Source: a virus (Duplodnaviria > Heunggongvirae > Uroviricota > Caudoviricetes). Taken from it: a stretch of 25,688 nt of DNA. The notes under the pieces were generated by a model. The model saw nothing but the letters and a program-made list of their open reading frames with translations. It did no database searches and was not told the DNA's origin. Shown here piece after piece: positions 5,387-25,688 of the stretch (position 1 is the stretch's first letter; each line of letters opens with the position of its first letter). Made by a program: the position numbers and the translations under genes. Location of the stretch: the IMG/VR virus record IMGVR_UViG_2925939204_000005, one strand, 5' to 3'.

Positions 5387-5415
5387 ACTGATTCCTCGCG
5401 GTGCTGTTTCGCTTA

Positions 5416-5544: not shown

Positions 5545-5545
5545 A

Positions 5546-8040: not shown

Positions 8041-8080
8041 GTGTTAATTTCTGGTCATGAGGTAATTTTCAGGAGGGCTT

Positions 8081-8503
8081 GTGGCAAAAGTTTTTACACA
8101 AGAAGAGCGGGAAAAAATTAAAGGGCAGGTTGTTGAACTCGTACGCCGGAGTGGGCGTGAGACGTTACGGCAACTGGAAGTCAAGACAGGTGCGACAAGA
8201 TATCTGATGAGCGTTCTCGCAAGAGAGCTGGTTGCCAGCGGCGATGTATACAACTCTGGTTACGGGTTATTCCCGTCTGAACAGGCGCGTAAGGACTGGC
8301 AAAATGCCCGTAAAAAGCTCTCAAGGGCAAAGCTGAAGGAACCATCTGCGGTTGATCCGGACCTTATCTGGTCATTACCTGACGGAGAAATACGTCGCTA
8401 CGACAGGCGTCAGAACATAATCTGTCGCGAGTGCCGGAAGAGTGAAGTTATGCAGCGCATACTAGCATTCTATCAGGGAAATGCTCGATATTTATTGAAG
8501 TGA
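8081..8503 (+). CDS. Hypothetical protein (140 aa)
   Basis: GTG start at 8081 preceded by AGGAGGG SD. Basic protein with a CxxC motif (CRECRK); no helicase-loader signature, so it is not an obvious P/DnaC analogue. Confidence 0.5.
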   Translation: MAKVFTQEEREKIKGQVVELVRRSGRETLRQLEVKTGATRYLMSVLARELVASGDVYNSGYGLFPSEQARKDWQNARKKLSRAKLKEPSAVDPDLIWSLPDGEIRRYDRRQNIICRECRKSEVMQRILAFYQGNARYLLK

Positions 8504-8755
8504 TGAGATTAAAGTTTATTAGTTCAGATATTGATTGGCTCTTTTGTGGAGTAGGGTAGAGTTAGTGTGTTTGTCTGCTTGGTGCCAGCAGCGGATATGT
8601 TTAACAACAGAAAGCATTCAGCATGGTTAGTGGGTTTGCAAAGTGGATTAGGATTTGAGAAACTTTGATGAAGTTGTAAAGCTTGTTTCTATAAAAATAG
8701 AAATTTAACTAATAGTTAAACACACCTCCAGCTTCATTGAAAAGGATTATTAGCT

Positions 8756-9655
8756 ATGATTGATCCACTTATTAGAAACTTACAGAGTGATATTGCACTA
8801 CTCCAGCTTTATATCGCGCAACGCAAACAGGCAGGCTTTCATGACATGGAAAGAATAATTGAGTCATTGACCATCTTTATGTTTCGCGCGCTGAAAATGG
8901 GTGAACTGGTAAACATGAATCAGATTAAAGTTAATTTTCCCGCCATTGATTTAGCTGATAATAAAAACATGATAGCAGTTCAAGTTACTACGAATGCAAG
9001 TCCAGCAAAAATTAAAAAAACTATCGAATCTTTTGAGAAAATAAATGAAATAGGAGAGAGTCTGAAAGATAAATACTCTACTTTATATATTTTTGGTTTT
9101 TGTAAAGCCTCAAGATACCTAACTCCAAGTTATTGTAAAATAATCGACCCCAGCTATTTCGTGAATGAACTTTGCGATAAAGCAGATGAAGATATGGTCC
9201 AGGATATGATTGACGCCATTCGACGCCATCATGATTATACATCATTACATCCATGGAGTGATAAAGATTCACTCGAAATTATACTCAATATTATTAATCG
9301 CAATGCAATAAAACATCGGATGAGTTGCGAAGGCAGTCTGTCTGATATGCTCACTGGTTTAAAAGAAATTAATGAAGTAATTACAAAAGGAACAATTCAA
9401 CGTAAGCAACGTTCAAAATCGATATCTGACTTCAAAGATCAAAGCATGGTGAAATTTATGAGAGGTGTAATGGATGATTTGTCTGTTATTCAAGCCATAG
9501 TGAACAAATCTAAAGTTAACCAAGGTGATATGGTTTATATAAGCCATGAAGATATGATTAATATTGATAAATTAAAAGCTAAAATAGCAAGTGATTCATC
9601 AGAGATTGCAAGGCTAAATAATATTGATATAACACTAAATGTTGTTGATTTATAA
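8756..9655 (+). CDS. SMEK-domain-like protein (299 aa), candidate defence/abortive-infection cargo
   Basis: AT-rich gene with AAGGA SD. N-terminal region (NFPAIDLADNKNMIAVQVTTNASPAKIKKTIESF) matches my recollection of the SMEK domain (PAID-LAD ... IA-QVT). C-terminal about 170 aa have no recognised motif. Confidence 0.6.
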   Translation: MIDPLIRNLQSDIALLQLYIAQRKQAGFHDMERIIESLTIFMFRALKMGELVNMNQIKVNFPAIDLADNKNMIAVQVTTNASPAKIKKTIESFEKINEIGESLKDKYSTLYIFGFCKASRYLTPSYCKIIDPSYFVNELCDKADEDMVQDMIDAIRRHHDYTSLHPWSDKDSLEIILNIINRNAIKHRMSCEGSLSDMLTGLKEINEVITKGTIQRKQRSKSISDFKDQSMVKFMRGVMDDLSVIQAIVNKSKVNQGDMVYISHEDMINIDKLKAKIASDSSEIARLNNIDITLNVVDL

Positions 9656-9969
9656 TTGTCGATTTAGCAAAACAGAGAATGCTTTGAAAGTTTCACCGAG
9701 AAATATTTATTGTGAACCTCCTTATTGTTTATCGACTTTTACTCTCCGCTCATTGCAGTACTGTCGGAGAAGGCTACTATGTACAAGAAGCAGCTAACAT
9801 AAGCGAGCATCACTATTGATATTAGGAAGAGTATATAAAAACTTCATGCTGAACCTTACAAAAGTAGGTAAACCGGCAATGGCCTAAGTGGCAGGGTCAT
9901 GTTGATCCGGCAATGCCGAGCTAATAATTAACAAGCAAATCACTCTTTCTAATAATTTGTTGAAATAAA

Positions 9970-10629
9970 CTAAATATGTATATGTTTACCAACAACCACA
10001 TATGAACTACCTGCTTTGCTCCATGATTTTATTATTTCTAAATTATTATCTGAGCATATTTTACTTACAGTATCCACATCTAATAAACCATAGTAGAAAG
10101 CATTACGAGAGTTTTGGTATATATACCCATGCAAATGTTTAATACCGCTCTCGTACCTCTTGAAATAAGAACTTTTGTATTGATTGACAATCAGTGCTTC
10201 ACCATCACTCTTTAATAATTCTCTAATCGCACTGAGGACTTTGTGAATTGTGGATTCACATGGAATTGCGGAAAGCACGTTTGCGCAAAGTATGAAATCA
10301 TAATGATTTGTTATTTTATCTATATTTTCATAAGAAACAATATTAGCATTCTTATAGTTATTTATCACGTAATCTGGAATCGTGGTTTGTACACCTCTGA
10401 TAATTTGCACTCTTTCTAGTTGTCTTCTGGAATCTAAAAATGTCACAGTTTCAAATTTATTTACTAATTGTTCTGAATATCTAAGTTTTCCACATCCAAA
10501 ATCAAGGGCATTGCCATTTTTATTAGTGCTTTCAATCTGTTTACAGAGATAGTTAGATGGCATAGTGTGCGGTTTCGCTGCATTTTCTGAACGTATGTTT
10601 ATTCCATTTATTTTGTAATTCAAAATCAA
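9970..10629 (-). CDS. Class I SAM-dependent methyltransferase (about 217 aa)
   Basis: Motif I LDFGCGKLRY, acidic residue ending beta-2 (VTFLDS) and motif-II-like DFILCANVL. The ORF-track start at 10629 is TTG; a TTG at 10623 with GAGG 6 nt upstream is an alternative. The gene starts 6 nt after the upstream membrane-protein stop, suggesting an operon. Confidence 0.65.
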   Translation of the reverse strand: MILNYKINGINIRSENAAKPHTMPSNYLCKQIESTNKNGNALDFGCGKLRYSEQLVNKFETVTFLDSRRQLERVQIIRGVQTTIPDYVINNYKNANIVSYENIDKITNHYDFILCANVLSAIPCESTIHKVLSAIRELLKSDGEALIVNQYKSSYFKRYESGIKHLHGYIYQNSRNAFYYGLLDVDTVSKICSDNNLEIIKSWSKAGSSYVVVGKHIHI

Positions 10630-10635
10630 CCTCGT

Positions 10636-11331
10636 TTAAAAAATATTGTTATTGTTAAAGAATTCTTTTATTTTGCTATCAGGTATTTGTCTTACTTGGC
10701 TTTCTGTTCTTGGTTTAACTGATGCTATGAAAATAAGGAAGTCAAATGCGACAAGAGAAATAATCCACAACCAAAGATTAATTAAAGAGCCAGTAACAGA
10801 GAATATATTTGTTAATTTGGCGATACTTATTATTAAAATAGTAACAAATGCGATTACTGTATGTTCAAAGAAAACCCAAAAGTAATAAACTTTGTTCCAG
10901 AAAAGTTCAACGTAATGTTTGTCTTTTAACTCTTTAACTTCTGGGTAATACAGTTTACTCATTACCTTGTGAGATTCATCAGTAGTTAATTTTCTCGTAA
11001 CGCCTGCAATTTTTGCTAATGGTTTAATAATTAAATGACTATCCCACATCTTCCTTATTCCAATAATTTTTGCTACATTATTATGTAGATCTAAAGCTCC
11101 ACTAATTACTGACCAAAAAACTGAAGATGCAATTGGTAATATGCCAAAGGTTAATATCCATTTAATAAATTCCTCGTAGTCTTTAACGGGGGGGATATAC
11201 TTGGCATTAATGCCAACCAATGGCATGTAGCCATAAATGACTAATGATAGGTAAAATATAAATGTAGTAATAAAAGTCGCCTTATGGAGCATAGGCAACA
11301 TTTCATTATAACTCTTTGGTGGTTCTAACAT
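10636..11331 (-). CDS. Integral membrane protein (about 231 aa, about 4 predicted TM helices), unknown function
   Basis: ATG at 11331 with GGAG SD (the ORF-track start at 11343 is TTG). Hydrophobic stretches at about residues 20-45, 65-85, 150-180 and 190-215; AT-rich codon usage; first gene of a two-gene operon with the methyltransferase. Confidence 0.6.
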   Translation of the reverse strand: MLEPPKSYNEMLPMLHKATFITTFIFYLSLVIYGYMPLVGINAKYIPPVKDYEEFIKWILTFGILPIASSVFWSVISGALDLHNNVAKIIGIRKMWDSHLIIKPLAKIAGVTRKLTTDESHKVMSKLYYPEVKELKDKHYVELFWNKVYYFWVFFEHTVIAFVTILIISIAKLTNIFSVTGSLINLWLWIISLVAFDFLIFIASVKPRTESQVRQIPDSKIKEFFNNNNIF

Positions 11332-12073
11332 TTTACTCTCCAAACACTCAAAAAAAAGCTAATCTTCTATAATAACGAAATTCAGCTGGCACAATTAAAG
11401 ATTAATTGCCACCAATTTCTTGATTTTATAATTTTATCTAAATGTTTTTGATTAATCTAGTCCTAAAAGAAACCTACTGCATAAATATTTATGCTGATGA
11501 CCCACTCCCTGTTCGTTAACACATAGCAACGTTAGTAATGCATCCTAAGTGATCAATATTTTTGCTAGCTTCATCTGCTCGCTCAAAGGGAACTATAATG
11601 TTGGCTTGCGTGTGACTTGGCATGTTTAAAGAAGTGCTGGTGGTGACTGGTTGCTGTTTTCCATTTCCACAGAACAAAATCATAGAAACTATACCCAGTA
11701 GTTGTATTGAATCACTGACGAGACAGCCTCATATTTATCAGGACTGGTGTACGTCCAATACAGGAGGTTGTGGTGCTGGTTCTCAAATGTGCGCTGGCTA
11801 TTGCTGCTGTAATGGCAATTTATTGTCTTGCTGTTGTTCTTATGGATCACCTTTCTGATTGATTTCATATTGGCGAGGTAACGGTAGTTAAGTAGAATTG
11901 CTGCGGGTGCTTGAGGCTATCTGCCTCGGGCATCAACACCAAAGGCAGATAGAGAAAAGCCCCAGTTAACATTACGCGTCCGGCAAGACGCTTAACATTA
12001 ATCTGAGGCCATATCTATGCTCTACACACGTAGGTTAGCCTCTTACGTGCCGAAAGGCAAGGAGAAGCAGGCT

Positions 12074-12229
12074 ATGAAGCAGCAAAAGGCGATGCTAATC
12101 GCCCTGATCGTCATCTGTTTAACCGTCATAGTGACGGCACTGGTAACGAGGAAAGACCTCTGCGAGGTACGAATCCGAATCGGCCAGACGGAGGTCGCTG
12201 TCTTCACAGCTTACGAACCTGAGGAGTAA
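12074..12229 (+). CDS. hok: Hok-family type I toxin (51 aa; HokD/RelF-like)
   Basis: MKQQKAMLIALIVICLTVIVTALVTRKDLCEVRIRIGQTEVAVFTAYEPEE: single TM helix followed by the conserved Hok periplasmic tail; AAGGAGAAG SD upstream. The ORF-track start at 12017 is an in-frame upstream extension. Confidence 0.85.
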   Translation: MKQQKAMLIALIVICLTVIVTALVTRKDLCEVRIRIGQTEVAVFTAYEPEE

Positions 12230-12298
12230 GAGACCCGGCGAGGGAGAAATCCCTCGCCACCTCTGATGTGGCAGGCATCCTCAACGCACCCGCACTTA

Positions 12299-12329
12299 AC
12301 CCGCTTCGGCGGGTTTTTGTTTTTATTTT
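12299..12329 (+). terminator. Rho-independent terminator downstream of hok
   Basis: AACCCGCTTCGGCGGGTTTTTGTTTTTATTTT: GC-rich hairpin (CCCGC/GCGGG) with a TTCG loop followed by a T-run. Confidence 0.65.
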
Positions 12330-12445
12330 CAACGCGTTTGAAGTTCTGGACGGTGCCGGAATAGAATCAAAAATACTTAAGTAGCGCGCAGGGATAAGAG
12401 GGATGGTCCCTTAAAGGGGAGAGCTAATTATCCGGAAGGATTCTG

Positions 12446-12697
12446 ATGATGAACATCGAAGAACTGCGTAAAATTTTTTGTGAAGATGGCCTCTATGCTG
12501 TGTGCGTTGAAAATGGAAATATTGTTAGTCATTACCGCATTGTGTGTTTGCAAAAAAATGGGGCTGCGTTAATTAATTTTGTGGATGCCCGAGTGACGGA
12601 CGGATTTATCTTGCGCGACGGTGAGTTTGTCACTTCATTACAGGCATTGAAAGAGATCGGAATAAAAGCTGGCTTTTCTGCTTTTTCAGAAGAATAA
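12446..12697 (+). CDS. Small hypothetical protein (83 aa), possibly Rem-like
   Basis: ORF with GGAAGGA SD; the same length (83 aa) and relative position (between hok and the DUF968 gene) as rem in Qin. I cannot confirm the identity from memory. Confidence 0.5.
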   Translation: MMNIEELRKIFCEDGLYAVCVENGNIVSHYRIVCLQKNGAALINFVDARVTDGFILRDGEFVTSLQALKEIGIKAGFSAFSEE

Positions 12698-12763
12698 ACT
12701 CATCTACAATCTTGCGCGGGGCTGAACTCCCGCTGAGTAACACCGTGCCACCGGAGAAAACCG

Positions 12764-13042
12764 ATGGCACGCAACGTAAAATATTACAATTCTGATAATT
12801 CGCCCGTTCTTGCCTGCACGCACGAGCGGTATTCTCACGCATTCAAGTCTGAATGGTTCCAGCACCCTCCATGCACTGAAGAGCAGGCTGAATGGATAAT
12901 TCAGTGTTACCGCAGGCGCGGATACGAGGTTAAGAAAGCTCTTAGTCTCGACTACCGTCACTGGATAATCTCAGTCAGATTGCCTTACTCCGAACGCCCA
13001 CCGCGTCCGTCCCGTACATTCCAGCAACGCATCTGGAGGTAA
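12764..13042 (+). CDS. Hypothetical protein (92 aa)
   Basis: ORF with GGAG SD 8 nt upstream; stop is 1 nt before the GTG start of the DUF968 gene, so compactly packed in the same operon. No recognised motif. Confidence 0.45.
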   Translation: MARNVKYYNSDNSPVLACTHERYSHAFKSEWFQHPPCTEEQAEWIIQCYRRRGYEVKKALSLDYRHWIISVRLPYSERPPRPSRTFQQRIWR

Positions 13043-13043
13043 C

Positions 13044-14093
13044 GTGCGGGTATTACTTCGACCTGTTCTGGTACCGGAACTCGGGCTGGTGGTCGTTAAG
13101 CCGGGCCGTGAATCCATGCCGGTATTCCACAATACCCGGGTACTGGTGGAGCCAGAACCGAAAAGCATGCGTAATCTGCCGTCCGGGGTCGTTCCCGCCG
13201 TTCGCCAGCCGCTGGTGGAAGACAAAACATTGCTGCCGTTTTTCAGTAACGCACGGGTAATTCGTGCTGCTGGTGGTGCTGGTGCATTGTCTGACTGGCT
13301 GTTGCGCCATATTAAATCCTGCCAGTGGCCACACGGCGATTATCATCACAGCGAAACCGTTATTCACCGTTATGGTACCGGCGCAATGGTGTTGTGCTGG
13401 CACTGCGACAACCAGCTGCGTGACCAGACATCCGAATCACTCGAGCAACTTGCTCATCAAAACCTGTCAGCATGGATGATTGACGTCATCGGTCACGCAA
13501 TAAGCGGTACGCAGGAGCGTGAATTATCTCTGGCTGAATTATCCTGGTGGGCGGTCCGCAATCAGGTGGCGGACGCGCTACCGGAAGCGGTATTACGTCG
13601 CTCGCTGGGATTACCAGCGGAAAAAAACTGCTCGGTGTACCGCGAAAGCGACATCGTACCGGGAGAGCAGACCGCCACCAGCATATTGAAACAGCGCACA
13701 AAAAATCTTGCACCGTTGCCTCACGCCCACCAGCAACAAAACCCATCACAGGAAAAGACGGTGGTAAGCATCACCGTTGATCCAGAGTCTCCGGAATCTT
13801 TCATGAAGCTGCCTAAACGTCACCGTTGGGTTAAGGAGAAATACACACGCTGGGTTAAGACACAGCCGTGTGCTTGCTGCGGTATGCCAGCCGACGATCC
13901 GCATCATCTGATTGGTCACGGGCAGGGCGGAATGGGAACCAAAGCACATGATCTCTTTGTGTTGCCTTTGTGCAGAAAGCATCACGACGAGTTGCATACG
14001 GATACCGTGGCATTTGAAGAGAAGTATGGCTCCCAACTGGAGCTGATTTTTCGATTTATCGATCGCGCGCTGGCAATTGGTGTGCTGGCCTAA
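13044..14093 (+). CDS. DUF968-family protein (YdfU/YbcN-like, 349 aa) with HNH-like C-terminal motif
   Basis: GTG start with GGAGG SD; C-terminus carries CxxC...HH...CRKHHDELH, a zinc-finger/HNH-like signature characteristic of DUF968 proteins that precede Q in lambdoid prophages. Confidence 0.75.
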
Positions 14094-14110
14094 TTTTGTG
14101 GAGTAAGTTG

Positions 14111-14488
14111 ATGCGTGATATTCAGATGGTTCTTGAGCGTTGGGGGGCATGGGCGGCTTATAATCATGAAGATGTGACCTGGTCGTCCATTGCCGCCGGT
14201 TTTAAGGGATTAATTCCTTCAAAAGTAAGATCTCGTCCGCAATGCTGTGACGATGACGTGATGATCATTTGTGAATGTATGGCTCGCCTGAAAAAAAACA
14301 ACAGCGATTTACATGATTTATTGGTGGACTATTATGTCGGCGGCATGACTTTTATGGCGCTTGCACGTAAGCATGGGCGATCTGATTGTTGGGTTGGCAG
14401 GATGCTCCAGAAAGCTGAGGGCGTAGTGGAGGGCATGCTGATGGTGTTGGATCTCCGATTGGAGATGGATGCTGATTGTTCGAAATAA
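14111..14488 (+). CDS. Late-gene antiterminator Q (QuuD/QuuQ-like)
   Basis: [16 protein letters not shown]...SRPQCCDDD...[16 protein letters not shown] resembles the remembered E. coli prophage Q proteins; ATG at 14111 with GGAG SD (the ORF-track start at 14096 is TTG). Confidence 0.85.
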
Positions 14489-14586
14489 TTAAAGGAAAAG
14501 TTGCTGTCTGATTTTCATTAGTCTAACATTTTAAATGTTGGAATCGCAACGTAGTTATTATCATATAACAGCTTGTTTCCTGATTT

Positions 14587-14618
14587 AGCCAGCCTCCCCA
14601 AAGGCTGGTTTTTTTTCT
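14587..14618 (+). terminator. Rho-independent terminator (tR'-like) downstream of Q
   Basis: AGCCAGCCTCCCCAAAGGCTGG followed by TTTTTTTT, about 100 nt downstream of Q, which is the expected place for the pR'/qut/tR' module. The promoter and qut themselves were not resolved. Confidence 0.7.
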
Positions 14619-14644
14619 AATAAGTATCATTTCGGGTGGGGATT

Positions 14645-15169
14645 TTATTGTTTAACCCATAATAGTTCATTGACATTGAATCCCAACTTTTGAGCGGTAC
14701 GCACATAGTCTGCTTTTACATTATCTGGAATAGTTTGGGTCCTTGCCAGAATCCATAGGTATTCTCTGTTCGGACCACTGACAAGAGCATACTTATACTC
14801 ATCATCCAGCTTGATTACATTATAGCCACCATAGAAGGGGCCAAAAAACGAAACTTTCAACGCTGCAGTTTTAGTATCTCCAGTAAAGTATGCTTTACCT
14901 TCGCTCTCGCTCCATTTGTTTTTCGTTGGATCGTATCCACGGTTAAGTACGCGAATCCCTCCGTCGTTCCGTTTTTCATAAGTAGCGCTGACCTGTTCCA
15001 GACCACGTTCGAACCAGTTCTCGAGGCGAGCTATTTCATACCATTTTCCGAGGTAGCGGTTGGCGTCAAAATTTGTAATCGGCTGCACACCTTTAGGTGG
15101 TGTCGGGGCCTTACATGCTATAAAAGTGAAAGAGAGTGCAATGCCAGTCAACACAGGCCATAACTTCAT
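14645..15169 (-). CDS. Bacterial lipocalin (Blc-like outer-membrane lipoprotein), moron
   Basis: 174 aa with a lipoprotein signal and lipobox (FTFIAC) and lipocalin motifs (NFDANRYLGKWYEIAR ... KVSFFGPFYGGYNVI), clearly homologous to but diverged from chromosomal Blc; opposite strand to the late operon. Confidence 0.85.
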   Translation of the reverse strand: MKLWPVLTGIALSFTFIACKAPTPPKGVQPITNFDANRYLGKWYEIARLENWFERGLEQVSATYEKRNDGGIRVLNRGYDPTKNKWSESEGKAYFTGDTKTAALKVSFFGPFYGGYNVIKLDDEYKYALVSGPNREYLWILARTQTIPDNVKADYVRTAQKLGFNVNELLWVKQ

Positions 15170-15361
15170 AATAAATCCTGTACTTTTGATAGTTGAGAGT
15201 AAGTATGAAAGATAGATGAGTACGACCGATCACTTAAAGAACTTTCCTACTATATTAGGAATAGTCAATAACAGAAAAATTGTCAGTGATGAAGCCAGAA
15301 AGGCAATTTAGTCCGTGCACTACAAAGTTTATGTGTTAATGAATTAGTCAAGGGGGAGGAA

Positions 15362-16321
15362 ATGATAAAAAAACCTGTGATTGGGATCAGCGGTTGTTTG
15401 GGCGGTTCTGCTGTTCGTTTTGATGGTGGTCACAAAAGAGATGACTTTTTAATGGACAAATTAGTGGAATGGGTAACATTCAGACCAGTATGTCCGGAAA
15501 TGGCTATAGGGCTGCCAGTTCCGCGTCCTGCTCTACGACTTGTGCGCTCGAAGCAAGGAAATATACGGATGTGTTTCAGCCACGACCAGAATGAGGATGT
15601 GACAGAGAGAATGACAGAGTTTAGTCGTTCTTATATGGACAAATTAAAGGATGTATCGGGGTTTGTGGTTTGTGCTAAATCTCCCAGCTGTGGCATGGAG
15701 CGCGTGCGTGTCTATGATGAAAATGGTAATCGAGGTCGTAAAGATGGAGTGGGACTATTTACGAGCACTTTGATGGAAAAGTTTTCCTGGCTACCGGTTG
15801 AAGAGGATGGGCGATTACATGATCCAGTGCTTCGTGAGAATTTTATTGAAAGAGTTTTTGCTTTGCATGAGCTCAATCATCTTTACAAGGAGAAATTATC
15901 AAGAAGAGAGTTATTAGCTTTTCATAGTCGTTATAAGCTTCAGTTGTTGGCGCATAGCCAGGCAGGCTATAAAGATATGGGACCATTTGTGGCTGCAATA
16001 CACGAGTGGGCGGACCTTGAATCATACTTTGAGGTGTATCGTGATAATCTGATGGCGATTCTCAGAAAACCAGCATCACGTAAAAATCACACGAATGTGC
16101 TGATGCATATACAGGGGTATTTTAGTAATTACTTAAGTACACGCCAGCGTAAAGAGTTGAGCGAGGTTATACTTAACTATCGCTTTGGCACATTGCCTCT
16201 TCTTGCGCCGTTGACTCTGCTGAAGCATTATCTGGGTGAGTATCCAAATGATTACTTGCTTACACAGAATTACTTCGATCCCTATCCGGAAGAACTGGCT
16301 CTAAGACTGATGGTGAATTAA
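15362..16321 (+). CDS. DUF523 + DUF1722 two-domain protein (YbgA/TudS-like), moron
   Basis: 319 aa with strong SD (AAGGGGGAGGAA). N-terminus has conserved Cys residues (GISGCLGG ... VCPE ... CAKSPSCG) typical of DUF523 (putative Fe-S, thiouracil-desulfidase-like) domains; C-terminal half resembles the YbgA-type DUF1722 domain. Confidence 0.75.
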   Translation: MIKKPVIGISGCLGGSAVRFDGGHKRDDFLMDKLVEWVTFRPVCPEMAIGLPVPRPALRLVRSKQGNIRMCFSHDQNEDVTERMTEFSRSYMDKLKDVSGFVVCAKSPSCGMERVRVYDENGNRGRKDGVGLFTSTLMEKFSWLPVEEDGRLHDPVLRENFIERVFALHELNHLYKEKLSRRELLAFHSRYKLQLLAHSQAGYKDMGPFVAAIHEWADLESYFEVYRDNLMAILRKPASRKNHTNVLMHIQGYFSNYLSTRQRKELSEVILNYRFGTLPLLAPLTLLKHYLGEYPNDYLLTQNYFDPYPEELALRLMVN

Positions 16322-16480
16322 CTGTATGCGATATCATCTGAAAGTGATGAGTTCCTGTATGCAGGATATTTACAATCGTAAAAACTACGCTATGATGCCC
16401 ATAGTGTCAGTTTGTATAAAAATGCGGTGATGCTGCCAACTTACTGATTTAGTGTATGATGGTGTTTTTGAGGTGCTCCA

Positions 16481-16756
16481 GTGGCTTCTGTTTCTATCAG
16501 CTGTCCCTCCTGTTCAGCTACTGACGGGGTGGTGCGTAACGGCAAAAGCACCGCCGGACATCAGCGCTATCTCTGCTCTCACTGCCGTAAAACATGGCAA
16601 CTGCAGTTCACTTACACCGCTTCTCAACCCGGTACGCACCAGAAAATCATTGATATGGCCATGAATGGCGTTGGATGCCGGGCAACTGCCCGCATTATGG
16701 GCGTTGGCCTCAACACGATTTTACGTCACTTAAAAAACTCAGGCCGCAGTCGGTAA
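16481..16756 (+). CDS. insA: IS1 InsA (91 aa)
   Basis: [40 protein letters not shown]...: canonical InsA with zinc-finger and HTH. Confidence 0.9.
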
Positions 16757-17178
16757 CCTCGCGCATACAGCCGGGCAGTGACGTCATCGTCTGCGCGGAA
16801 ATGGACGAACAGTGGGGCTATGTCGGGGCTAAATCGCGCCAGCGCTGGCTGTTTTACGCGTATGACAGTCTCCGGAAGACGGTTGTTGCGCACGTATTCG
16901 GTGAGCGCACTATGGCGACGCTGGGGCGTCTTATGAGCCTGCTGTCACCCTTTGACGTGGTGATATGGATGACGGATGGCTGGCCGCTGTATGAATCCCG
17001 CCTGAAGGGAAAGCTGCACGTAATCAGCAAACGATATACGCAGCGAATTGAGCGGCATAACCTGAATCTGAGGCAGCACCTGGCACGGCTGGGACGGAAG
17101 TCGCTGTCGTTCTCAAAATCGGTGGAGCTGCATGACAAAGTCATCGGGCATTATCTGAACATAAAACACTATCAATAA
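16675..17178 (+). CDS. insB: IS1 InsB frame (167-aa annotated ORF; expressed as InsAB' by -1 frameshifting)
   Basis: [21 protein letters not shown]...: canonical InsB reading frame; the A-run slippery site lies in the insA/insB overlap. Confidence 0.85.
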
Positions 17179-17252
17179 GTTGGAGTCATTACCCTTCTTT
17201 CCTTCTTCGAACCAAACCGTGTACACCATCCGTTATCTGCGGAGGTGAGGCT

Positions 17253-17468
17253 ATGAAATCCATGGATAAGTTAACAACGGGCATCGCCTACAGCACCTCT
17301 GCAGGCAGTGCTGGCTACTGGTTTTTACAGTTGCTCGATAAAGTCACGCCCTCACAGTGGGCGGCAATAGGTGTGCTGGGTAGCCTGGTATTTGGCCTGC
17401 TGACGTACCTGACAAACCTTTATTTCAAGATTAAAGAAGATAAGCGCAAGGCTGCGAGAGGTGAATAA
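17253..17468 (+). CDS. Class II holin (phage 21 S / EssD-like pinholin, 71 aa)
   Basis: [24 protein letters not shown]...: two TM segments, dual-start motif (Met1/Met4), charged C-terminus; GGAGGTGAGG SD. Confidence 0.85.
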
Positions 17469-17965
17469 TGCCTCCATCATTACGAAAAGCCGTTGCTGCT
17501 GCTATTGGTGGCGGAGCAATTGCTATAGCATCAGTGTTAATTACTGGCCCAAGTGGTAACGATGGTCTGGAAGGTGTCAGCTACATACCATACAAAGATA
17601 TTGTTGGTGTATGGACTGTATGTCACGGGCATACAGGAAAAGACATCATGTTCGGTAAAACGTATACCAAAGCAGAATGCAAAGCCCTCCTGAATAAAGA
17701 CCTTGCCACGGTCGCCAGACAAATTAACCCGTACATCAAAGTCGATATACCGGAAACAATGCGCGGCGCTCTTTACTCATTCGTTTACAACGTGGGTGCT
17801 GGCAATTTCAGAACATCGACGCTTCTTCGCAAAATAAACCAGGGCGATATCAAAGGCGCATGTGATCAGCTACGTCGCTGGACATATGCTGGCGGTAAGC
17901 AATGGAAAGGTCTCATGACTCGTCGTGAGATTGAGCGTGAAATCTGTTTGTGGGGTCAGCAATGA
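17468..17965 (+). CDS. SAR endolysin (T4-lysozyme-like muramidase, phage 21 R-like)
   Basis: N-terminal Gly/Ala-rich signal-anchor-release segment ([18 protein letters not shown]) and catalytic E-x8-D-x5-T triad ([16 protein letters not shown]); start overlaps the holin stop. Confidence 0.85.
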
Positions 17966-18423
17966 ACAGAGTAACCGCGATTATCTCCGCTCTGGTTATC
18001 TGCATCATCGTCGGCCTGTCATGGGCTGTTAATCATTACCGTGATAACGCCATTACCTACAAAGCCCAGCGCGACAAAAATGCCAGAGAACTGAAGCTGG
18101 CGAACGCGGCAATTACTGACATGCAGATGCGTCAGCGTGATGTTGCTGCGCTCGATGCAAAATACACGAAGGAGTTAGCTGATGCGAAAGCTGAAAATGA
18201 TGCTCTGCGTGATGATGTTGCCGCTGGTCGTCGTCGGTTGCACATCAAAGCAGTCTGTCAGTCAGTGCGTGAAGCCACCACCGCCTCCGGCGTGGATAAT
18301 GCAGCCTCCCCCCGACTGGCAGACACCGCTGAACGGGATTATTTCACCCTCAGAGAGAGGCTGATCACTATGCAAAAACAACTGGAAGGAACCCAGAAGT
18401 ATATTAATGAGCAGTGCAGATAG
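17962..18423 (+). CDS. Rz i-spanin
   Basis: [21 protein letters not shown]...: N-terminal TM anchor followed by a coiled-coil-rich periplasmic domain; start overlaps the endolysin stop. Confidence 0.8.
18182..18364 (+). CDS. Rz1 o-spanin (lipoprotein embedded in Rz in the +1 frame)
   Basis: 60-aa ORF wholly inside Rz: signal peptide with lipobox Cys (LVVVGC) and proline-rich mature region ([15 protein letters not shown]). Confidence 0.75.
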
Positions 18424-18454
18424 AGCTGCCCATATCGATGGGCAGCTCATGCAA

Positions 18455-18748
18455 TTATTGTGAGCAATACACACGCGCTTCCAGCGGAGTATAAATGCCT
18501 AAAGTAATAAAACCGAGCAATCCATTTACGAATGTTTGCTGGGTTTCTGTTTTAACAACATTTTCTGCGCCGCCACAAATTTTGGCTGCATCAACAGTTT
18601 TCTCCTGTCCAATTCCCGAAACGAAGAAGTGATGGGTGATGGTTTCCTTTGGTGTTACTGCTGTCGGTTTGTTTCCAACAGTAAACGTCTGTTGAGCACA
18701 TCCTGTAATAAGCATTGCCAGAGCGGCAGAAAACAACATTTTTTTCAT
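18455..18748 (-). CDS. bor: Bor lipoprotein (serum-resistance protein, 97 aa)
   Basis: Internal Met of ORF 18455..18796: MKKMLFSAALAMLITGCAQQTFTVGNKPTAVTPKETITHHFFVSGIGQ..., recognised as lambda Bor; lipobox LITGC; opposite strand downstream of Rz as in lambda. Confidence 0.85.
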   Translation of the reverse strand: MKKMLFSAALAMLITGCAQQTFTVGNKPTAVTPKETITHHFFVSGIGQEKTVDAAKICGGAENVVKTETQQTFVNGLLGFITLGIYTPLEARVYCSQ

Positions 18749-19440
18749 CTTATTATCCTGCATTGTTAAAAACGGCAGAATCCTATGTGACAACAATTAA
18801 ACGATAGTTAAATGGATTGATGAAAATTAAAACTATATAGGTGTACGCTCAGACTATTGGAGGAAGTTGGGGACACTCAGAATCCTGTGGAATGAAATAA
18901 ACCGGTCTATCCGTCTATTACCCTTTTAGCTGCGCTGTATCGTCGCCGTATTCCCGTATTAACAGAGACCGTAGCCCGACGGGGAACTCCTTCTGCGCGA
19001 GTATGCGGGAATAATCAAAAACGATGCACACCGGGTTTTTACCGCGTTTATGGTTCGCGGGTTTGTCCCTCATGCTCGCCAGTCCTGTGCGGGGGTGGAA
19101 GAAACAGGACACTTACACAGATTCTTGTGGGCACGATGCTATGCCTTTCTGGATTATCCCGATGCCATTCATGCAAGGCGTTGTATCAGACGTTCGTCAG
19201 AGCTGTCAGGCTGACGGGTCCTCCCGGTGGGGTGGCCTGCCACGGGGCGGGAGCGTCGCGGAAAAAGGCTAGTTTTTGCATTTCCATGGCGGCGGCAGCA
19301 TGTTTGGTAATTTATTGATAATTAAAAGTTATTTCTCTTTTCAGCTGTACAATATTTTTTTCTCCCTGTCATTAGACTAGTTTGCAATTAATTGAAATAT
19401 ATAAATAAACCTGATTTTCACCTGCCAGATGGAGTTGCTT

Positions 19441-19968
19441 ATGTCAAATGTGAGCGGGATCGGTGATGCTTATTACTGGAGTGTTTTTAAAATCGCCGAG
19501 GCCTTTGGGCTTCACCGGGACACAGTAAAAAAACGGCTCCTCGCGGCCAACACTCCTGTGGCTGCGACTGTCAGGGGGAACCCCGTTTACGCCCTGCAGC
19601 ATGTCGGGCCCGCCCTGTTTAGTGTGAAGCATGAGGCAGCAGACTCTGTTCATGATCCATCCCGTATGGAGCCGAAAGAGAGAAAGGACTGGTACCAGTC
19701 TGAAAATGAAAGGATCAAGCTGGAAAAGGAGCAGCGAAAACTCATCCCAGTTGATGAAGTAGTCATCGTCTATTCGTCCATGAGAAAGGCTGTCGTCCAG
19801 GTTCTGGAGACAATTCCGGATGTTCTTGAACGCGATTGCGCCCTGACTCCTCAGGCCGTCGGCGTTGTACAGCAGGCCATTGATGACCTGCGATACACTC
19901 TTCAGGAAAAATCCTACGAGGCTTGTGCTGCTGAATTAATTCCTGATGAGGAAGGAGAGAGTCTCTAG
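19441..19968 (+). CDS. Terminase small subunit (Nu1/gp1-like DNA-packaging protein)
   Basis: N-terminal HTH-like segment (YYWSVFKIAEAFGLHRDTVKKRLL), acidic C-terminus, immediately upstream of and translationally adjacent to the large terminase. GGAG SD favours the ATG at 19441 over 19429. Confidence 0.65.
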   Translation: MSNVSGIGDAYYWSVFKIAEAFGLHRDTVKKRLLAANTPVAATVRGNPVYALQHVGPALFSVKHEAADSVHDPSRMEPKERKDWYQSENERIKLEKEQRKLIPVDEVVIVYSSMRKAVVQVLETIPDVLERDCALTPQAVGVVQQAIDDLRYTLQEKSYEACAAELIPDEEGESL

Positions 19969-19976
19969 GAGGAATA

Positions 19977-21287
19977 ATGGGTTTTTCATCAGCCCGAAAT
20001 TTGGGAAGGGACATATCGGCAGGATTTTCCCCACCACGTCGCATGCCGATTTCGGAGGCTGTTAAAAAATTCATGCGTGTTCCCAAGGGGGCTGGTAACT
20101 CGGTGCCATGGGATCCTGAACTGACACCCTACATCATTGAGCCCATGAACTGCCTGGCATCGCGTGAATACGATGCGGTGATTTTTGTTGGTCCTGCGCG
20201 AACAGGGAAGACCATTGGTCTGATCGATGGATGGATTGTCTATACCATCGTTTGCGATCCTTCGGACATGCTCGTTGTGCAGATGACCGAAGATAAGGCC
20301 CGCGAGCATTCTAAAAAGCGCCTCGACAGAACGTTCAGAAGCAGTGCGGCGGTAAAGAAAAGAATGAGTCCACGTCGTAACGACAATAATGTCCATGATA
20401 AGACGTTCAGGGATGGCTCGTTCCTTAAAATTGGTTGGCCCTCGGTCAACATTATGTCGTCGTCGGATTACCGGTTTGTCGCCTTAACCGATTACGACCG
20501 TTTTCCGGAGAATATCGACAGCGAGGGTGATGGTTTCTCCCTGGCCTCAAAACGTACCACCACATTTATGTCCGCCGGGATGACTCTGGTGGAGAGCTCG
20601 CCGGGACGTGACATCTGCGACAGCAAATGGCGACGTAAGTCGCCTCATGAAGCGCCACCGACGACTGGTATTCTTTCCCTTTACAATCGTGGTGACCGCC
20701 GCCGCTGGTACTGGCCATGTCCGCACTGCGGTGAATATTTTCAGCCAGCTATGGATGCCATGACCGGCTACCGTAATGAACCGGATCCCTTTAAAGCCAG
20801 TGAGGCGGCGTATCTACTTTGCCCACACTGCAGCGGCATTATCACTGCGGAGAAAAAGCGTGAGCTCAATAGTGCAGGAGTCTGGTTGCGTGAAGGTCAG
20901 GTCATTGATCGTAACGGCAACGTTTCCGGTGAACCGCGCCGCTCCCGTATCGCCAGTTTCTGGATGGAAGGGCCAGCTGCTGCGTATCAGGCCTGGGCGC
21001 AACTGGTTTACAAATTACTGACTGCAGAACAGGAGTATGAAGCGACAGGAAGAGAAGAAACACTCAGGGCGGTTATCAACACCGACTGGGGATTACCTTA
21101 TCTTCCCCGCGCCAGCATGGAGCAACGAAAAAGTGAACTGCTTGAGCAGCGGGCAGAGCCAGTTCCTTCCCGCAGTGTGCCAGATGGCGTTAATTTCCTT
21201 GTGGCGACAGTGGATGTGCAGGCGGGACGTCATCGCCGTTTTGTGGTTCAGGTACCGGAGTCGGAAGTTGCCGGACCCTGCAGATGA
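19977..21287 (+). pseudogene. Terminase large subunit, C-terminally truncated (first about 425 codons only)
   Basis: AGGAGG SD; zinc-ribbon-like motif WYWPCPHCGEYFQ comparable to lambda gpA. The frame ends about 10 codons after [19 protein letters not shown], at the start of the expected nuclease domain, where the sequence switches to tail-fibre sequence. Confidence 0.8.
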
Positions 21288-22090
21288 AGGCGCATTACAG
21301 AAATGGTGGTCTGTTCTACCGTTCTTCAAGAGACGGTTATGGTTTTGAGGAAGGCTGGGCAGAAGTTTATACCTCGAAAAATCTTCCACCAGAAAGCTAC
21401 CCAGTCGGCGCACCAATCCCGTGGCCATCAGATACCGTTCCGTCTGGTTATGCCCTGATGCAGGGGCAGACTTTTGACAAATCTGCCTACCCAAAACTTG
21501 CAGCCGCTTATCCGTCAGGCGTGATCCCTGATATGCGTGGCTGGACGATTAAGGGCAAACCTGCCAGTGGTCGGGCCGTATTGTCTCAGGAACAGGACGG
21601 CATTAAATCGCACACCCACAGCGCCAGCGCATCCAGTACGGATTTGGGGACGAAAACCACATCGTCGTTTGATTACGGAACCAAATCCACGAATAACACC
21701 GGGGCGCATACCCATAGTATTAGCGGGACCGCAAATAGTGCCGGTGCGCACCAACACAAGAGTTCCGGTGCATTTGGTGGCACGAACACGAGCATTTTCC
21801 CTAATGGTTATACCGCGATTTCAAATCTAAGCGCGGGGATTATGAGCACAACAAGCGGTAGTGGCCAGACTCGTAATGCAGGGAAGACATCATCAGATGG
21901 TGCTCATACCCACTCGCTGTCCGGCACTGCTGCAAGCGCAGGCGCACATGCACATACTGTCGGTATTGGTGCTCATACGCACTCCGTTGCGATTGGCTCA
22001 CATGGACACACCATCACCGTTAACGCTGCTGGTAACGCGGAAAACACCGTCAAAAACATCGCATTTAACTATATTGTGAGGCTTGCATAA
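21284..22090 (+). pseudogene. Side tail fibre protein (Stf) C-terminal fragment
   Basis: 268-aa ORF with G-A-H-T/Q-H-S repeats and the conserved ending [14 protein letters not shown] typical of lambdoid Stf C-termini; the N-terminal part (typically several hundred codons) is missing. The true 5' boundary is the deletion junction near 21250..21285. Confidence 0.75.
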
Positions 22091-22671
22091 TGGCATTCAG
22101 AATGAGTGAACAAGCACGGACCATAAAAATTTATAATCTGCTGGCCGGAACTAATGAATTTATTGGTGAAGGTGACGCATATATTCCGCCTCATACAGGT
22201 CTGCCAGCAAACAGTACCGATATTGCACCACCAGATATTCCGGCAGGCTTCGTGGCTGTTTTCAACAGTGATGAGGCATCGTGGCATCTCGTTGAAGACC
22301 ATCGGGGTAAAACGGTTTATGACGTGGCTTCCGGCGACGCGTTATTTATTTCTGAACTCGGTCCGTTACCGGAAAATGTTACCTGGTTGTCGCCGGGAGG
22401 GGAATATCAGAAGTGGAACGGCACAGCCTGGGTGAAGGATACGGAAGCAGAAAAACTGTTCCGGATCCGGGAGGCAGAAGAAACAAAAAACAGCCTGATG
22501 CAGGTAGCCAGTGAGCATATTGCGCCACTTCAGGATGCTGTAGATCTGGAAATCGCAACGGAGGAAGAAATCTCGTTGCTGGAAGCCTGGAAGAAGTATC
22601 GGGTGTTGCTGAACCGTGTTAATACAACAACTGCACCGGATATTGAATGGCCAGTAGCACCTATAGGGTAA
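22090..22671 (+). CDS. Tail fibre assembly protein Tfa (193 aa)
   Basis: ATG overlaps the stf stop (TAATG); conserved C-terminal motif [29 protein letters not shown]. Confidence 0.85.
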
Positions 22672-23259
22672 ATTCGTAATGATTACCTAAATACGTTATT
22701 CTTTTGTTCAAAAAGTGATTTTGCTATAGGTAGGGAGTATGTTCTTGGATTAAGAATAAAAATCGCCATGAAAGAGCTTCATGGCGAGTACATAAACGTA
22801 CAAAATATGATGAAAGTAGAGTGGCGTAAGCCACTATATTAAGATATGACAATAGCGAAGAAAAGTAAATAACATTTTATGGGCGTTTAATTGTCAATTA
22901 TAAAAACTAGAGTGCCCGATATTGTTTATCTTGCTTTAAAATAATGTACTCAAACCAAATTTTTGAGCTAAAAGCTCAAATAATATAAATGCAATGATAA
23001 TGTTTAATAAGACAATTAGCTTGCTTTGTATTTTCATTTCGGAATACTGTTAAGTAACTTTGATGACACTAACAATAGATCGGAATTTTCTTAGAGTCAA
23101 TGGTCACTGTTTTTGCTTGCAAAGCAAATGTTTTTGGTGGTTATAAGTTTTCTTAATATAGTCACCTATGCAACTTGTTCCTTGTGGAGATTAAAGGTTA
23201 AAATTTAATGCGAAGATGGAATTATAATATATTTTTTTATAATTAATTTAACCTTAACA

Positions 23260-23358
23260 TCGTTGCTGGCGGCATGGAAGAAATATCGGGTCTTGCTGAT
23301 GTCGTGTTGGCACTTCCTTAGTGCGGTTATCGAATGGCCAGCTGTACCTGTGGGGTAA
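23260..23358 (+). pseudogene. Fossil tfa 3' end (C-terminal about 33 codons only)
   Basis: Aligns by eye to the 3' end of tfa (22566..22671) and translates to [32 protein letters not shown]-stop. No upstream tfa body; AT-rich flanks. Confidence 0.6.
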
Positions 23359-24014
23359 AAACTTTATATGGGTGCTATTTTTATAATAGCTGGTAAAAAC
23401 TGGCCGAACTGAAATTCACTGTTGATAAAAAAGATGTGTTTGAGTGTATGTCATTGTTTTCTTAATGGAATCCACTAGAATGCAGCGAATTTAAGAAGGT
23501 GGGTTTTTATTGGAATATAAACTACAATAATGCTCAACTCGTTCGTAGAATTGTTTTTTCTTATTTTTTGGAATGCTAACCATTATATGCATTATGGGGG
23601 CGATACTTCCTGATAATTTACATGATGCATACATTGAAGCAATAAATTCAATATCATTGTCATCAAAGTTAAAGCTTTCTCCGTCCATTTCAATTCCTTA
23701 TGTGTTTGGCACAACTGATGCTGTATCCCATGAGAATTTATGCAAGTTGTTATGTTTGATTTGATATTGCAATGATAATTGTAGCTAATTGTTTTCAATT
23801 GAGTGAAAGTTTATTTCGAGTGATTAAGTCGAAAAAAAAGATTTCTCACGGTTAGTAAGCGTATTAGGTTAGTATTCAGATATGAATGGTATTAATGACT
23901 AAATTTTCAATCATATATGGATTTTTATGCTGATGAAGATGTTTTATTTGGCGATTCGTCAAGCATCTTCACTTAAGTAATCGTATATTTTAAGAGTGCA
24001 AAAGAGAAAGGGAC

Positions 24015-24115
24015 AACGTTGCTCGCACTCTGGATTAAATATAGGGTGTTGTTAAACTGCGTTGATACATAATTGTACCGGATATTGAGTGGTCTGAAGT
24101 CCCAGTCATTAAGTA
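24015..24115 (+). pseudogene. Second fossil tfa 3' end (frameshifted)
   Basis: Nucleotide similarity to the tfa 3' end; translates in two frames to TLLALWIKYRVLLNCVDT-stop and VPDIEWSEVPVIK-stop. Confidence 0.55.
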
Positions 24116-24404
24116 ATCGTTTCGTGATATGCCGCAGAAACGTTGTATGCAATAACGTTCTGCGGTTGGCTGATGCACTTTCGAGAGTGTATTGAATAAT
24201 TTCAATCCGTTATTGTTTTTACGCGTAACACCATGAAAAGACTGCTTATCTGTTGGGGTATTTTTTGGGGCATATATGGGACAGAAATAGGCCACAGATA
24301 GATAGTAAGATCGAACTCAGGATGCTTTTGAAAAAATGTAACTATCTGAAAAAACCTAGAAAGCGCCAAGGAAACCACAGAATGAGAAAAAACATCTGTG
24401 AATT

Positions 24405-25688
24405 ATGGATTTCCAGTTATATTCGCTCGGCGCAGCGTTGGTGTTTCATGAAATATTTTTTCCTGAATCATCAACGGCAATGGCGTTAATTTTGGCAATG
24501 GGAACCTACGGTGCAGGTTATGTGGCGCGTATTGTCGGAGCATTTATTTTCGGCAAAATGGGCGACAGAATAGGGCGTAAAAAAGTGCTCTTTATTACCA
24601 TCACCATGATGGGGATCTGTACCACCTTAATTGGTGTGTTACCGACCTATGCACAGATTGGTGTTTTTGCCCCCATCTTGCTGGTGACGCTGCGTATTAT
24701 TCAGGGGTTGGGTGCAGGTGCGGAAATTTCCGGTGCCGGTACGATGCTGGCGGAATATGCACCAAAAGGTAAGCGCGGAATTATCTCCTCATTTGTAGCT
24801 ATGGGAACTAACTGCGGAACCTTGAGCGCAACGGCAATCTGGGCCTTTATGTTCTTCATTCTCAGTAAAGAGGAACTGCTGGCGTGGGGATGGCGTATAC
24901 CGTTCCTGGCGAGCGTTGTCGTGATGGTCTTTGCTATCTGGTTACGTATGAATCTGAAAGAAAGCCCGGTCTTTGAGAAGGTTAATGACAGCAACCAACC
25001 CACAGCAAAACCTGCACCTGCTGGTAGCATGTTCCAGAGCAAATCCTTCTGGCTGGCAACAGGGCTGCGTTTTGGTCAGGCGGGTAACTCCGGGTTAATT
25101 CAGACTTTCCTTGCAGGCTATTTAGTGCAGACGTTATTGTTTAACAAAGCAATTCCAACAGATGCATTGATGATTAGTTCGATTCTCGGCTTTATGACCA
25201 TTCCGTTCCTTGGTTGGTTATCCGATAAAATTGGTCGCCGGATCCCGTATATTATTATGAATACCTCCGCGATTGTGCTGGCATGGCCAATGCTTTCTAT
25301 CATTGTAGATAAAAGCTATGCCCCGAGCACCATTATGGTTGCACTGATTGTGATTCATAACTGTGCGGTGCTGGGATTATTTGCTCTGGAAAACATTACC
25401 ATGGCAGAAATGTTCGGCTGTAAAAACCGCTTTACCCGGATGGCCATTTCTAAAGAAATTGGTGGTCTTATCGCTTCCGGTTTTGGTCCTATCCTGGCGG
25501 GTATTTTCTGCACCATGACGGAATCCTGGTATCCGATCGCCATTATGATCATGGCATATTCAGTGATTGGTTTAATCTCTGCGCTGAAAATGCCAGAAGT
25601 GAAAGACCGTGATTTAAGTGCGCTGGAAGACGCTGCGGAAGATCAACCGCGTGTTGTAAGAGCTGCGCAACCTTCCAGAAGTCTGTAA
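24405..25688 (+). CDS. ydfJ: MFS transporter (metabolite:H+ symporter family, YdfJ-like), N-terminally disrupted host gene
   Basis: 427-aa ORF with MFS motifs (GKMGDRIGRKK, second-half LSDKIGRR). The ORF begins inside the conserved N-terminal N-x-x-E-W-x-D-F motif (MDFQLYS...), so the native N-terminus is missing or frameshifted. Confidence 0.8.
   Translation: MDFQLYSLGAALVFHEIFFPESSTAMALILAMGTYGAGYVARIVGAFIFGKMGDRIGRKKVLFITITMMGICTTLIGVLPTYAQIGVFAPILLVTLRIIQGLGAGAEISGAGTMLAEYAPKGKRGIISSFVAMGTNCGTLSATAIWAFMFFILSKEELLAWGWRIPFLASVVVMVFAIWLRMNLKESPVFEKVNDSNQPTAKPAPAGSMFQSKSFWLATGLRFGQAGNSGLIQTFLAGYLVQTLLFNKAIPTDALMISSILGFMTIPFLGWLSDKIGRRIPYIIMNTSAIVLAWPMLSIIVDKSYAPSTIMVALIVIHNCAVLGLFALENITMAEMFGCKNRFTRMAISKEIGGLIASGFGPILAGIFCTMTESWYPIAIMIMAYSVIGLISALKMPEVKDRDLSALEDAAEDQPRVVRAAQPSRSL

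Follow-up and report, generated by a model that had tools for sequence, protein, structure and literature searches.

A terL–stf junction in a defective Qin/Tritos-type prophage of Escherichia coli: the scar of what was very probably a single 19,812-bp deletion

The DNA analysed here, a stretch of 25,688 nt that we refer to as the window, is a defective Qin/Tritos-type lambdoid prophage inserted in the ydfJ gene of an E. coli chromosome. Judging from alignments to complete prophages, its whole virion-building module was very probably lost through one illegitimate deletion of 19,812 bp, running from codon 426 of the large terminase gene (terL) to codon 815 of the side-tail-fibre gene (stf). Low-homology end-joining or replication slippage would have joined the two codons at a shared TA dinucleotide. 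The junction itself is without function and is the scar of a low-homology deletion. The features on which this reading depends are listed in table 1.

Table 1. Features of the prophage and their positions in the window.
Feature	Coordinates	Strand	Remarks
Defective Qin/Tritos-type lambdoid prophage	1..24413	.	Collinear with Tritos, STEC719 and XH990
int	20-1300	minus	99% identity to Tritos and XH990
xis	1335-1586	minus	99% identity to Tritos and XH990
Q	14096-14488
IS1	16426..17193	+	Terminal inverted repeats at 16426 and 17171-17193; 60 bp upstream of the holin gene
Holin gene	17253-17468
Endolysin gene	17468-17965		Rz/Rz1 also kept
cosN-like GGGCGGGAGCGT	19245..19256	+	Equals the first 12 bases of the Tritos record (left end)
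Small terminase gene, intact, DUF1441 type	19429..19968	+	Pfam DUF1441, E = 1.7e-44; PGAP start 19441
Large terminase remnant	19977..21254	+	Native codons 1-426 of 699
Deletion junction, dinucleotide TA	21253..21254	+	From three-way alignments of window, intact terL and intact stf
Ten out-of-frame codons and TGA stop of the terminase frame	21255..21287	+	DNA stf-derived
Side-tail-fibre (stf) remnant	21255..22090	+	stf codons 815-1092 of 1092
Tail-fibre assembly gene tfaQ, intact	22090..22671	+	Pfam Caudo_TAP, E = 2.8e-42
attR core TTATGGATTTC	24403..24413	+	Start of the ydfJ 3' part; mapped via the STEC719 alignment offset

Two open reading frames meet at the junction. The first, on the plus strand (19977-21287, 436 aa), ends exactly 10 codons past the terminase motif quoted in the initial annotation, with its stop codon at 21285-21287. 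The second (21284-22090, 268 aa) begins with an ATG that overlaps the TGA of the terminase frame as ATGA. The initial annotation had described this pair as a truncated terminase beside a tail-fibre C-terminal fragment of about 268 residues, had put the breakpoint within 21240-21290 and had asked for an alignment to an intact genome with a search for microhomology. The reading frames and Pfam agree with that description, and the alignment fixes the breakpoint inside the proposed interval, on the shared TA (table 1). The terL and stf frames are out of phase there according to the computed frame offset, so the terminase reads 10 foreign codons and then stops, and a fusion protein is not made.

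The bases at the junction fit a deletion that needed little homology. The terL sequence ..GTGGTTCAGG-TA-ACGGGC and the stf sequence ..AACTTCTA-TA-CCGGAGTC have become ..GTGGTTCAGG-TA-CCGGAGTC; the exact overlap is TA only, and the hexamers TAACGG and TACCGG agree at 5 of 6 positions. The joint is seamless (zero filler bases), no repeat longer than 2 bp is present at the endpoints, and no IS element lies at the junction, the nearest being IS1 at a distance of 4 kb. Few shared bases and a seamless joint formed without an IS or a long repeat are the marks of a low-homology (illegitimate) deletion. In the phage collection, terL homology (Tritos and the cdtI phage, 99.3-99.5%) stops at 21258 and stf homology (ev099, 98%) starts at 21253.

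Both genes at the junction are remnants. On the terL side, which is 99.4-99.7% identical to terL of Tritos and STEC719 up to 21254/21258, Pfam recovers a complete GpA_ATPase domain (PF05876; profile positions 2-247 of 247, E = 1.7e-81) and only positions 1-95 of the 294 in the GpA_nuclease profile, the domain being cut after about one third. Because the nuclease profile is partial and 426 of 699 codons are left, the window's terL is a pseudogene remnant and not a functional member of the gpA-type large terminases. PGAP likewise calls it a pseudogene without its C-terminus (‘terminase gpA endonuclease subunit’), ending at the base equivalent to 21254. On the stf side, identity to stf of STEC719 and XH990 is 99.9% from 21253 on, and the first ATG, at 21284, opens the 268-aa frame. 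This part carries the Phage Tail Collar domain and the phage fibre repeat (Phage_fiber) in Pfam and is followed by a Tfa chaperone gene, as is typical of the C-terminal end of a lambdoid Stf. Codons 1-814 of the 1092, which would encode the N-terminal tail-attachment domain and the long middle section of the protein, are missing, and PGAP marks the gene (‘phage tail protein’) as a pseudogene without its N-terminus. The protein of the neighbouring tfaQ, WP_000885571.1, is one accession across deleted and intact prophages.

The surroundings identify the element. E. coli strain 165 has a sequence identical to the window, which in the PGAP annotation is a prophage flanked by rspB and ydfJ and carries dicB, dicA/dicC, hokD, rem, the Q antiterminator, essD/rrrD/rzpD and iss, then the DUF1441 gene, the terminase remnant, the tail-protein remnant, tfaQ and the ydfJ 3' part, which begins at 24405. 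Rfam adds DicF at 4775-4826 (minus strand) and sok at 11905-12079; dicB, DicF, dicA/dicC, hokD/sok, rem and ydfU of the Qin/Tritos type thus stand in their usual order. The 11-bp core TTATGGATTTC is a direct repeat at both prophage ends in STEC719. The left core falls about 28 bp before the first base of the window, with attL itself just outside, which gives an att-to-att length of about 24.43 kb. Integration at ydfJ/rspB with a short att core repeat is that of the Qin/Tritos type; the complete morphogenetic module of a functional phage of this type is missing from the window element. Its length compares with 46.36 kb for both the STEC719 prophage and Tritos, and with about 44-46 kb for intact types.

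The evidence for a single deletion comes from intact counterparts. Tritos, prophage 3 of strain LF82, is active: it yields siphovirus particles and forms plaques on K-12 (PMC9928086). Window positions 1-5739, from int to ydfA, correspond to Tritos 24860-30598 at 99% identity (the Tritos genome is circularly permuted), and 19245-21258 to Tritos 1-2014 at 99.4%. Tritos differs from the window in its stf/tfa type and in the presence of pinR. Neither Tritos nor ev099 could serve alone as the parent, since each matches one flank only, and the true parental type was therefore sought with the right end of the window (22650-24450, covering the end of tfa, an AT-rich segment and part of ydfJ). This right end is present in 577 genomes, several of which have an intact terL about 21.3 kb upstream. 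Two were fetched, STEC719 and XH990, and both hold complete prophages between rspB and ydfJ whose terS, tfaQ and downstream ORF protein accessions are those of the window type. The STEC719 prophage has int, xis, the DUF1441 gene, a 2,100-nt terL, a portal gene, a ClpP-like protease/capsid fusion, tail genes, J, lom, an stf of 1,092 codons and tfaQ; that of XH990 has the same gene set plus all accessory genes of the window and its IS1.

Tritos, XH990 and STEC719 are all collinear with the window and share its cos, terS and terL (99.4-99.7%), and XH990 and STEC719 also share its attachment site and stf-tfa-attR region (99.9% identical). The difference is that these three are complete (44-46 kb), whereas the window is without 19,812 bp of head and tail genes. 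More precisely, the terS-terL region of STEC719 matches window 19216-21258 at 99.7% identity (6 mismatches in 2,043 bases), and its stf-tfa-attR-ydfJ region matches 21253-25688 at 99.9% (4 mismatches in 4,436); in both STEC719 and XH990 the distance between these stretches exceeds that in the window by 19,812 bp. Against XH990 the window shows 13 mismatches over 8600-21254 (12.6 kb) and 2 over 21255-23881 (2.6 kb), and one 19,812-bp gap is the sole structural difference near the junction. About 127 further mismatches are clustered at 6500-8500, a divergent 2-kb patch in the replication region, and XH990 has an extra IS903B. Outside this patch, identity of the window to the two intact prophages around the junction is about 99.9%.

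What disappeared can be read from the intact prophages: terL codons 427-699, the head-tail joining gene, the portal gene, the ClpP-like protease/capsid fusion, the head-completion and tail genes, the tape measure gene, L, K, I, J, lom and stf codons 1-814. Two earlier proposals, that every gene between terL and stf is gone and that a single large deletion removed them, are thus upheld by prophages at the same rspB/ydfJ site. STEC719 and XH990 carry prophages of the parental type, neither of them necessarily the direct ancestor.

The endpoints themselves say something about mechanism. A comparison of terL with stf gives 2,371 exact 6-mer pairs and three of 12 bases, none used by the deletion, and 37,705 position pairs whose 5-of-6 microhomology equals the one that was used. 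Given these numbers, microhomology is rejected as the reason for the choice of site. Long repeats left unused and so many equal pairs fit end-joining or slippage with minimal homology, a class assignment that follows from what is established about illegitimate recombination in E. coli. A deletion mediated by a Pin/Din invertase was also considered and rejected: the window has no pin gene, and AAACCNNGGTTT, which we take to be the consensus of the Din crossover core, does not occur with one mismatch or fewer near stf/terL in the window, K-12 Qin, Tritos, ev099, KSC64, MB06021 or ETEC4073.

Seven other types of junction between a truncated terL and a truncated stf were met in related prophages, and where endpoints are shared they are shared on one side only. 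ET881, ETEC4073, NT1F34/MB06021, A30, MB06234 and NRZ99027-2 resemble the window in that the terL break falls in the second half of the gene and distal stf follows, with 2-6 bp of microhomology, and several sit at the same ydfJ site. They differ from it in their endpoints, which are shared on one side in some cases, and in their flanking alleles (73-95% identity versus about 100%). In A30 the product is annotated as one continuous pseudogene that runs from terL into stf.

On the stf side two positions recur. Site B (TA followed by CCGGAGTCGG) is joined to terL ..CAGGTA in the window, to terL ..CCAGCTA in ET881 and to gene Z ..CGTTACC in NRZ99027-2. Site C (TA followed by ACCGCGCTG) is joined to terL ..CCAGCTA in NT1F34/MB06021, to terL ..GCGGGCA in A30 and to nohA ..GAATATA in K-12 Qin. 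On the terL side, ..CCAGCTA is found with stf sites A, B and C, and ..GCGGGCA with stf site C in A30 and with a position inside gene Z in NRZ99027-2.

This pattern raises the question of whether the deletion was directed to its site, for example by topoisomerase, gyrase or another nuclease that cuts stf site B and a few terL sites. Site B is the right endpoint in the window, ET881 and NRZ99027-2, each time with another left partner, site C is so in three others including K-12 Qin, and two terL nucleotides are reused; moreover, microhomology alone does not pick these sites out of the many equal pairs. The sample is small, however, and may suffer from ascertainment bias, since the survey started from queries tied to the flanks of the window itself. 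Some of the reuse is also explained by secondary deletions between TACCGG repeats: the ET881 junction could have arisen from that of ETEC4073 by an in-frame deletion of 678 nt between such repeats. No recombinase site was recognised at the sites, and the lack of a Din-invertase core near them and of a pin gene in the window weighs on the same side. We consider directed cutting rather unlikely for the deletion in the window, and low-homology joining remains the preferred reading.

Whatever the cause, most junction types are probably independent events, to judge from their diverged flanks and from retained segments that exclude one another. The window keeps stf 21253-21365, which is absent in NT1F34, and NT1F34 keeps 110 nt of terL absent in the window; NRZ99027-2 keeps a fragment of gene Z. 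A nested series of deletions was rejected as a general model for all junction types, since several keep segments that others have lost.

In its broader form, the idea is that a breakage or recombination hotspot repeatedly turns Qin/Tritos-like phages into one kind of remnant, in which terS and half a terL stand before the receptor-binding end of stf and tfa. The endpoint comparison makes this an outside possibility. Because of the overlapping stop-start (ATGA) ahead of it, the stf end might be expressed and act on phage receptors, an action that has been reported for StfE2 of the cryptic prophage e14 (PMC12529663). With one genome taken per species, the 20-mer to the right of the junction has five matches: four from Escherichia/Shigella, where it sits in its native stf setting, and one from Actinoplanes, where the surroundings are unrelated. 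These matches speak neither for nor against a hotspot.

The shared site B also allows a route in two steps. The first would have been a deletion with its terL endpoint about 110 nt downstream of the present one (..CCAGCTA) and with an unchanged stf endpoint, as seen in ET881; slippage over 110 bp between GGTAACGG and GCTACCGG would have followed and left the junction now observed. ET881 and SW071610 do read ..GATCCGGCCAGC-TA-CCGGAGTCGG, with a stf-side endpoint identical to that of the window, and the two 8-mers match at 6 of 8 positions. On the other hand, the ET881 flanks are 88% (terL) and 95% (stf) identical to the window, against 99.7-99.9% for XH990/STEC719, and the ET881-type junction occurs in an XH990-like background in none of 5,426 genomes. 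No intermediate with that junction in a window-like background was found among them either, the junction being confined to ET881 and SW071610. Two steps are therefore very unlikely, and one deletion from an XH990-like or STEC719-like prophage is the reading we carry forward.

Apart from the lost module, the prophage is well preserved. The initial annotation had listed integration, immunity, replication, Q, lysis and packaging-recognition functions as retained, and int/xis, dicA/dicC, replication genes, Q, S/R/Rz, cosN and the small terminase gene are all in place; PGAP also names an exonuclease, a YdaT-family gene, a replication gene and a DUF977 gene among those kept. The sequence GGGCGGGAGCGT, presumably the cohesive end given its resemblance to lambda cosN, lies at the exact point of the window where homology changes from the right end of Tritos to its left end. 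That the small terminase is intact holds good: its protein, WP_001389340.1, is one accession in strain 165 (deleted) and in STEC719 and XH990 (intact). It is not of the Nu1 type of phage 21/lambda, as Pfam gives DUF1441, and the DUF1441 gene is the small terminase in the Tritos annotation.

The IS1 is older than the deletion, because XH990, in which the structural genes are still present, has the same element; it is annotated at the same place in XH990 and strain 165, and the alignment of the window to XH990 is gapless across it. This IS1 may already have weakened late gene expression, so that the prophage was possibly impaired before the deletion. After the deletion, particles can presumably no longer be made, nor can the element cut its own cos, since the TerL nuclease domain is gone. 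Excision, replication, late gene expression and lysis of the cell may still occur. The stf-tfa cassette and the cos/terS pair would also stay available to related phages, through recombination or through packaging in trans. Pick-up of stf-tfa type cassettes by related phages via recombination has been shown for defective prophages of K-12 (PMC3945230).

With its cos site and terS, the element could, from sequence, be packaged by a related helper phage. Such mobilisation would be constrained by size, because the element measures 24.4 kb against about 44-46 kb for an intact phage. A monomer, with some 53-55% of the intact genome length, is below the minimum for stable packaging in lambda-like heads, whereas a dimer (about 48.9 kb) would lie at the upper packaging limit.

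One could go further and regard the element as a selected, helper-dependent, satellite-like entity that kept cos, terS, int, xis and replication for packaging by a related phage, and not as a product of decay. The intact state of cosN, terS, int, xis and the replication genes agrees with this, as does the dimer length (2 x 24.43 kb), which is near the 46.4-kb genome of Tritos. Yet the element is collinear with a complete prophage save for one apparently very recent deletion, still has Q, the lysis genes and half a terL, and reaches as a monomer only about 53% of the intact prophage length. No satellite-type genes were seen in the annotation, and, judged from it, the compact dedicated architecture and helper-hijacking genes of PICI-like satellites are lacking. 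Together with the presence of the junction in just 18 of 5,426 genomes, this makes a selected satellite most improbable, and decay by deletion is the reading retained.

Those 18 complete E. coli genomes, assembled independently, carry the junction with 100% identity and come from humans, pig, chicken, fish and frog. An assembly artefact (a collapsed repeat or mis-join), which the initial annotation had named as what would overturn its reading, can be set aside with near certainty, as the same junction was sequenced independently in different laboratories and from different hosts, no repeat longer than 2 bp exists at the endpoints, and the longest exact repeat between the two regions (12 bp) lies elsewhere.

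The deletion appears to be recent, because its flanks are near-identical to intact prophages and the stf-tfa remnant shows no decay. The event is probably confined to one lineage that includes ST101. MS6192, MS6193 and CREC-591 are published as ST101 (bioRxiv 10.1101/860726; PMC5884925), which covers 3 of the 18 carriers; the junction may serve as a lineage marker. Strain 165 later gained an IS3 in its endolysin gene, a further step of decay.

The closest textbook parallel is Qin (Kim) of K-12. There too ydfJ is interrupted with rspB on the other side, and the early region holds dicB, DicF, ydfA-C, dicA/dicC, hokD/sok, rem and ydfU. The morphogenetic genes are likewise gone; a packaging gene stands directly next to a shortened stf, and tfaQ comes after it. 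The joint is a different one, however: in K-12 Qin the Nu1-type nohA is joined directly to stfQ (..GAATA-TA-ACCGCGCTG), and int function and more genes have been lost while pinQ-ydfK-ynfT is kept. In the window, by contrast, int and xis are still there, as are a DUF1441 terS and 426 codons of terL, and an AT-rich 1.7-kb segment takes the place of pinQ-ydfK. The deletion in K-12 Qin is ancient, whereas that in the window appears to be recent.

The window is thus a new allele of a well-known object, a Qin-type defective lambdoid prophage, and a case of ordinary prophage decay; its remnant state is already visible in RefSeq, where both gene remnants are marked as pseudogenes. Its value lies in how cleanly it documents the passage from a working temperate phage to a cryptic prophage in a single step. 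The states before (XH990, STEC719) and after the deletion occupy one and the same chromosomal site and differ in almost nothing else, which makes a useful worked example. The deletion itself matters little, and the reuse of endpoints is the sole part that may repay further work: if true, it would point to a mechanistic bias in the domestication of E. coli prophages.

The structural genes are still present in the complete prophage of E. coli strain XH990. This prophage carries the identical insertion of a complete IS1, and the IS1 is therefore older than the 19.8-kb deletion. The IS1 separates the Q/blc/ybgA region from the lysis cassette, and late transcription may be affected by it. Between 6461 and 21254, the window and XH990 differ by 140 mismatches, 127 of which are clustered in 2 kb within the replication region, leaving only 13 across the other 12.6 kb. 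Judged from this distribution of mismatches, the divergent stretch looks like a recombination patch. The three groups of genes listed as cargo in the table are dispensable for phage growth.

Features of the window surrounding the deletion junction
Feature	Position	Strand	Content or context
Divergent stretch	6500-8500		YdaT-family gene, replication gene, DUF977
Cargo	8756-11343		SMEK-domain gene, class I SAM methyltransferase, unnamed ORF
Cargo	14645-16321		blc and ybgA-family gene, between Q and lysis genes
IS1, complete	16426-17193		768 bp; 60 bp upstream of holin gene
Cargo	18455-18796		iss/bor lipoprotein gene, after Rz
Rfam family IS009	22433-22631	+	229 bits, full length; within 3' part of tfaQ coding sequence
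AT-rich segment	22700-24400		about 1.7 kb, 30-37% GC; between tfaQ and attR
65-aa ORF	23491-23688	-	sole annotated ORF of the AT-rich segment

Just past the junction, the truncated terminase frame stops in the tetranucleotide ATGA (21284-21287), which also holds the first ATG left in the stf remnant; such an overlap could allow translational coupling. The ATG at 21284 is the native Met825 of stf; thus, the overlap is a chance product of the frame shift.

Among independent junctions of terL and stf remnants in related prophages, the same nucleotides recur as endpoints. The positions compared were 21253-21254 in the window, 4190 in the ET881 locus (L009), 3456 in the A30 locus (L011) and, in four further related loci, 3228 and 3547 (L013), 3437 (L005), 3665 (L006) and about 8841 (L007). 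On the stf side, site B is the endpoint in three junctions (the window and related prophages) and site C in another three, including the nohA|stfQ junction of K-12 Qin, while two terL positions are reused, one twice and the other three times. The partner on the opposite side of a reused endpoint is different in every junction. Microhomology was considered as the reason for site choice and does not account for it.

Towards the right end, K-12 Qin has the pinQ-ydfK-ynfT genes, whereas the window has the AT-rich segment in their stead. Right ends of the window type were found in 577 of 5,426 complete genomes.

Relatives show additional decay. In strain 165 (L001, 15433-17266), the endolysin gene is interrupted by an IS3; in ET881 (4184-6138), a second deletion has taken the stf 3' end, tfa, the ydfJ remnant and the start of ydfI; and in A30 (2449-4359), one annotated pseudogene spans terL into stf.
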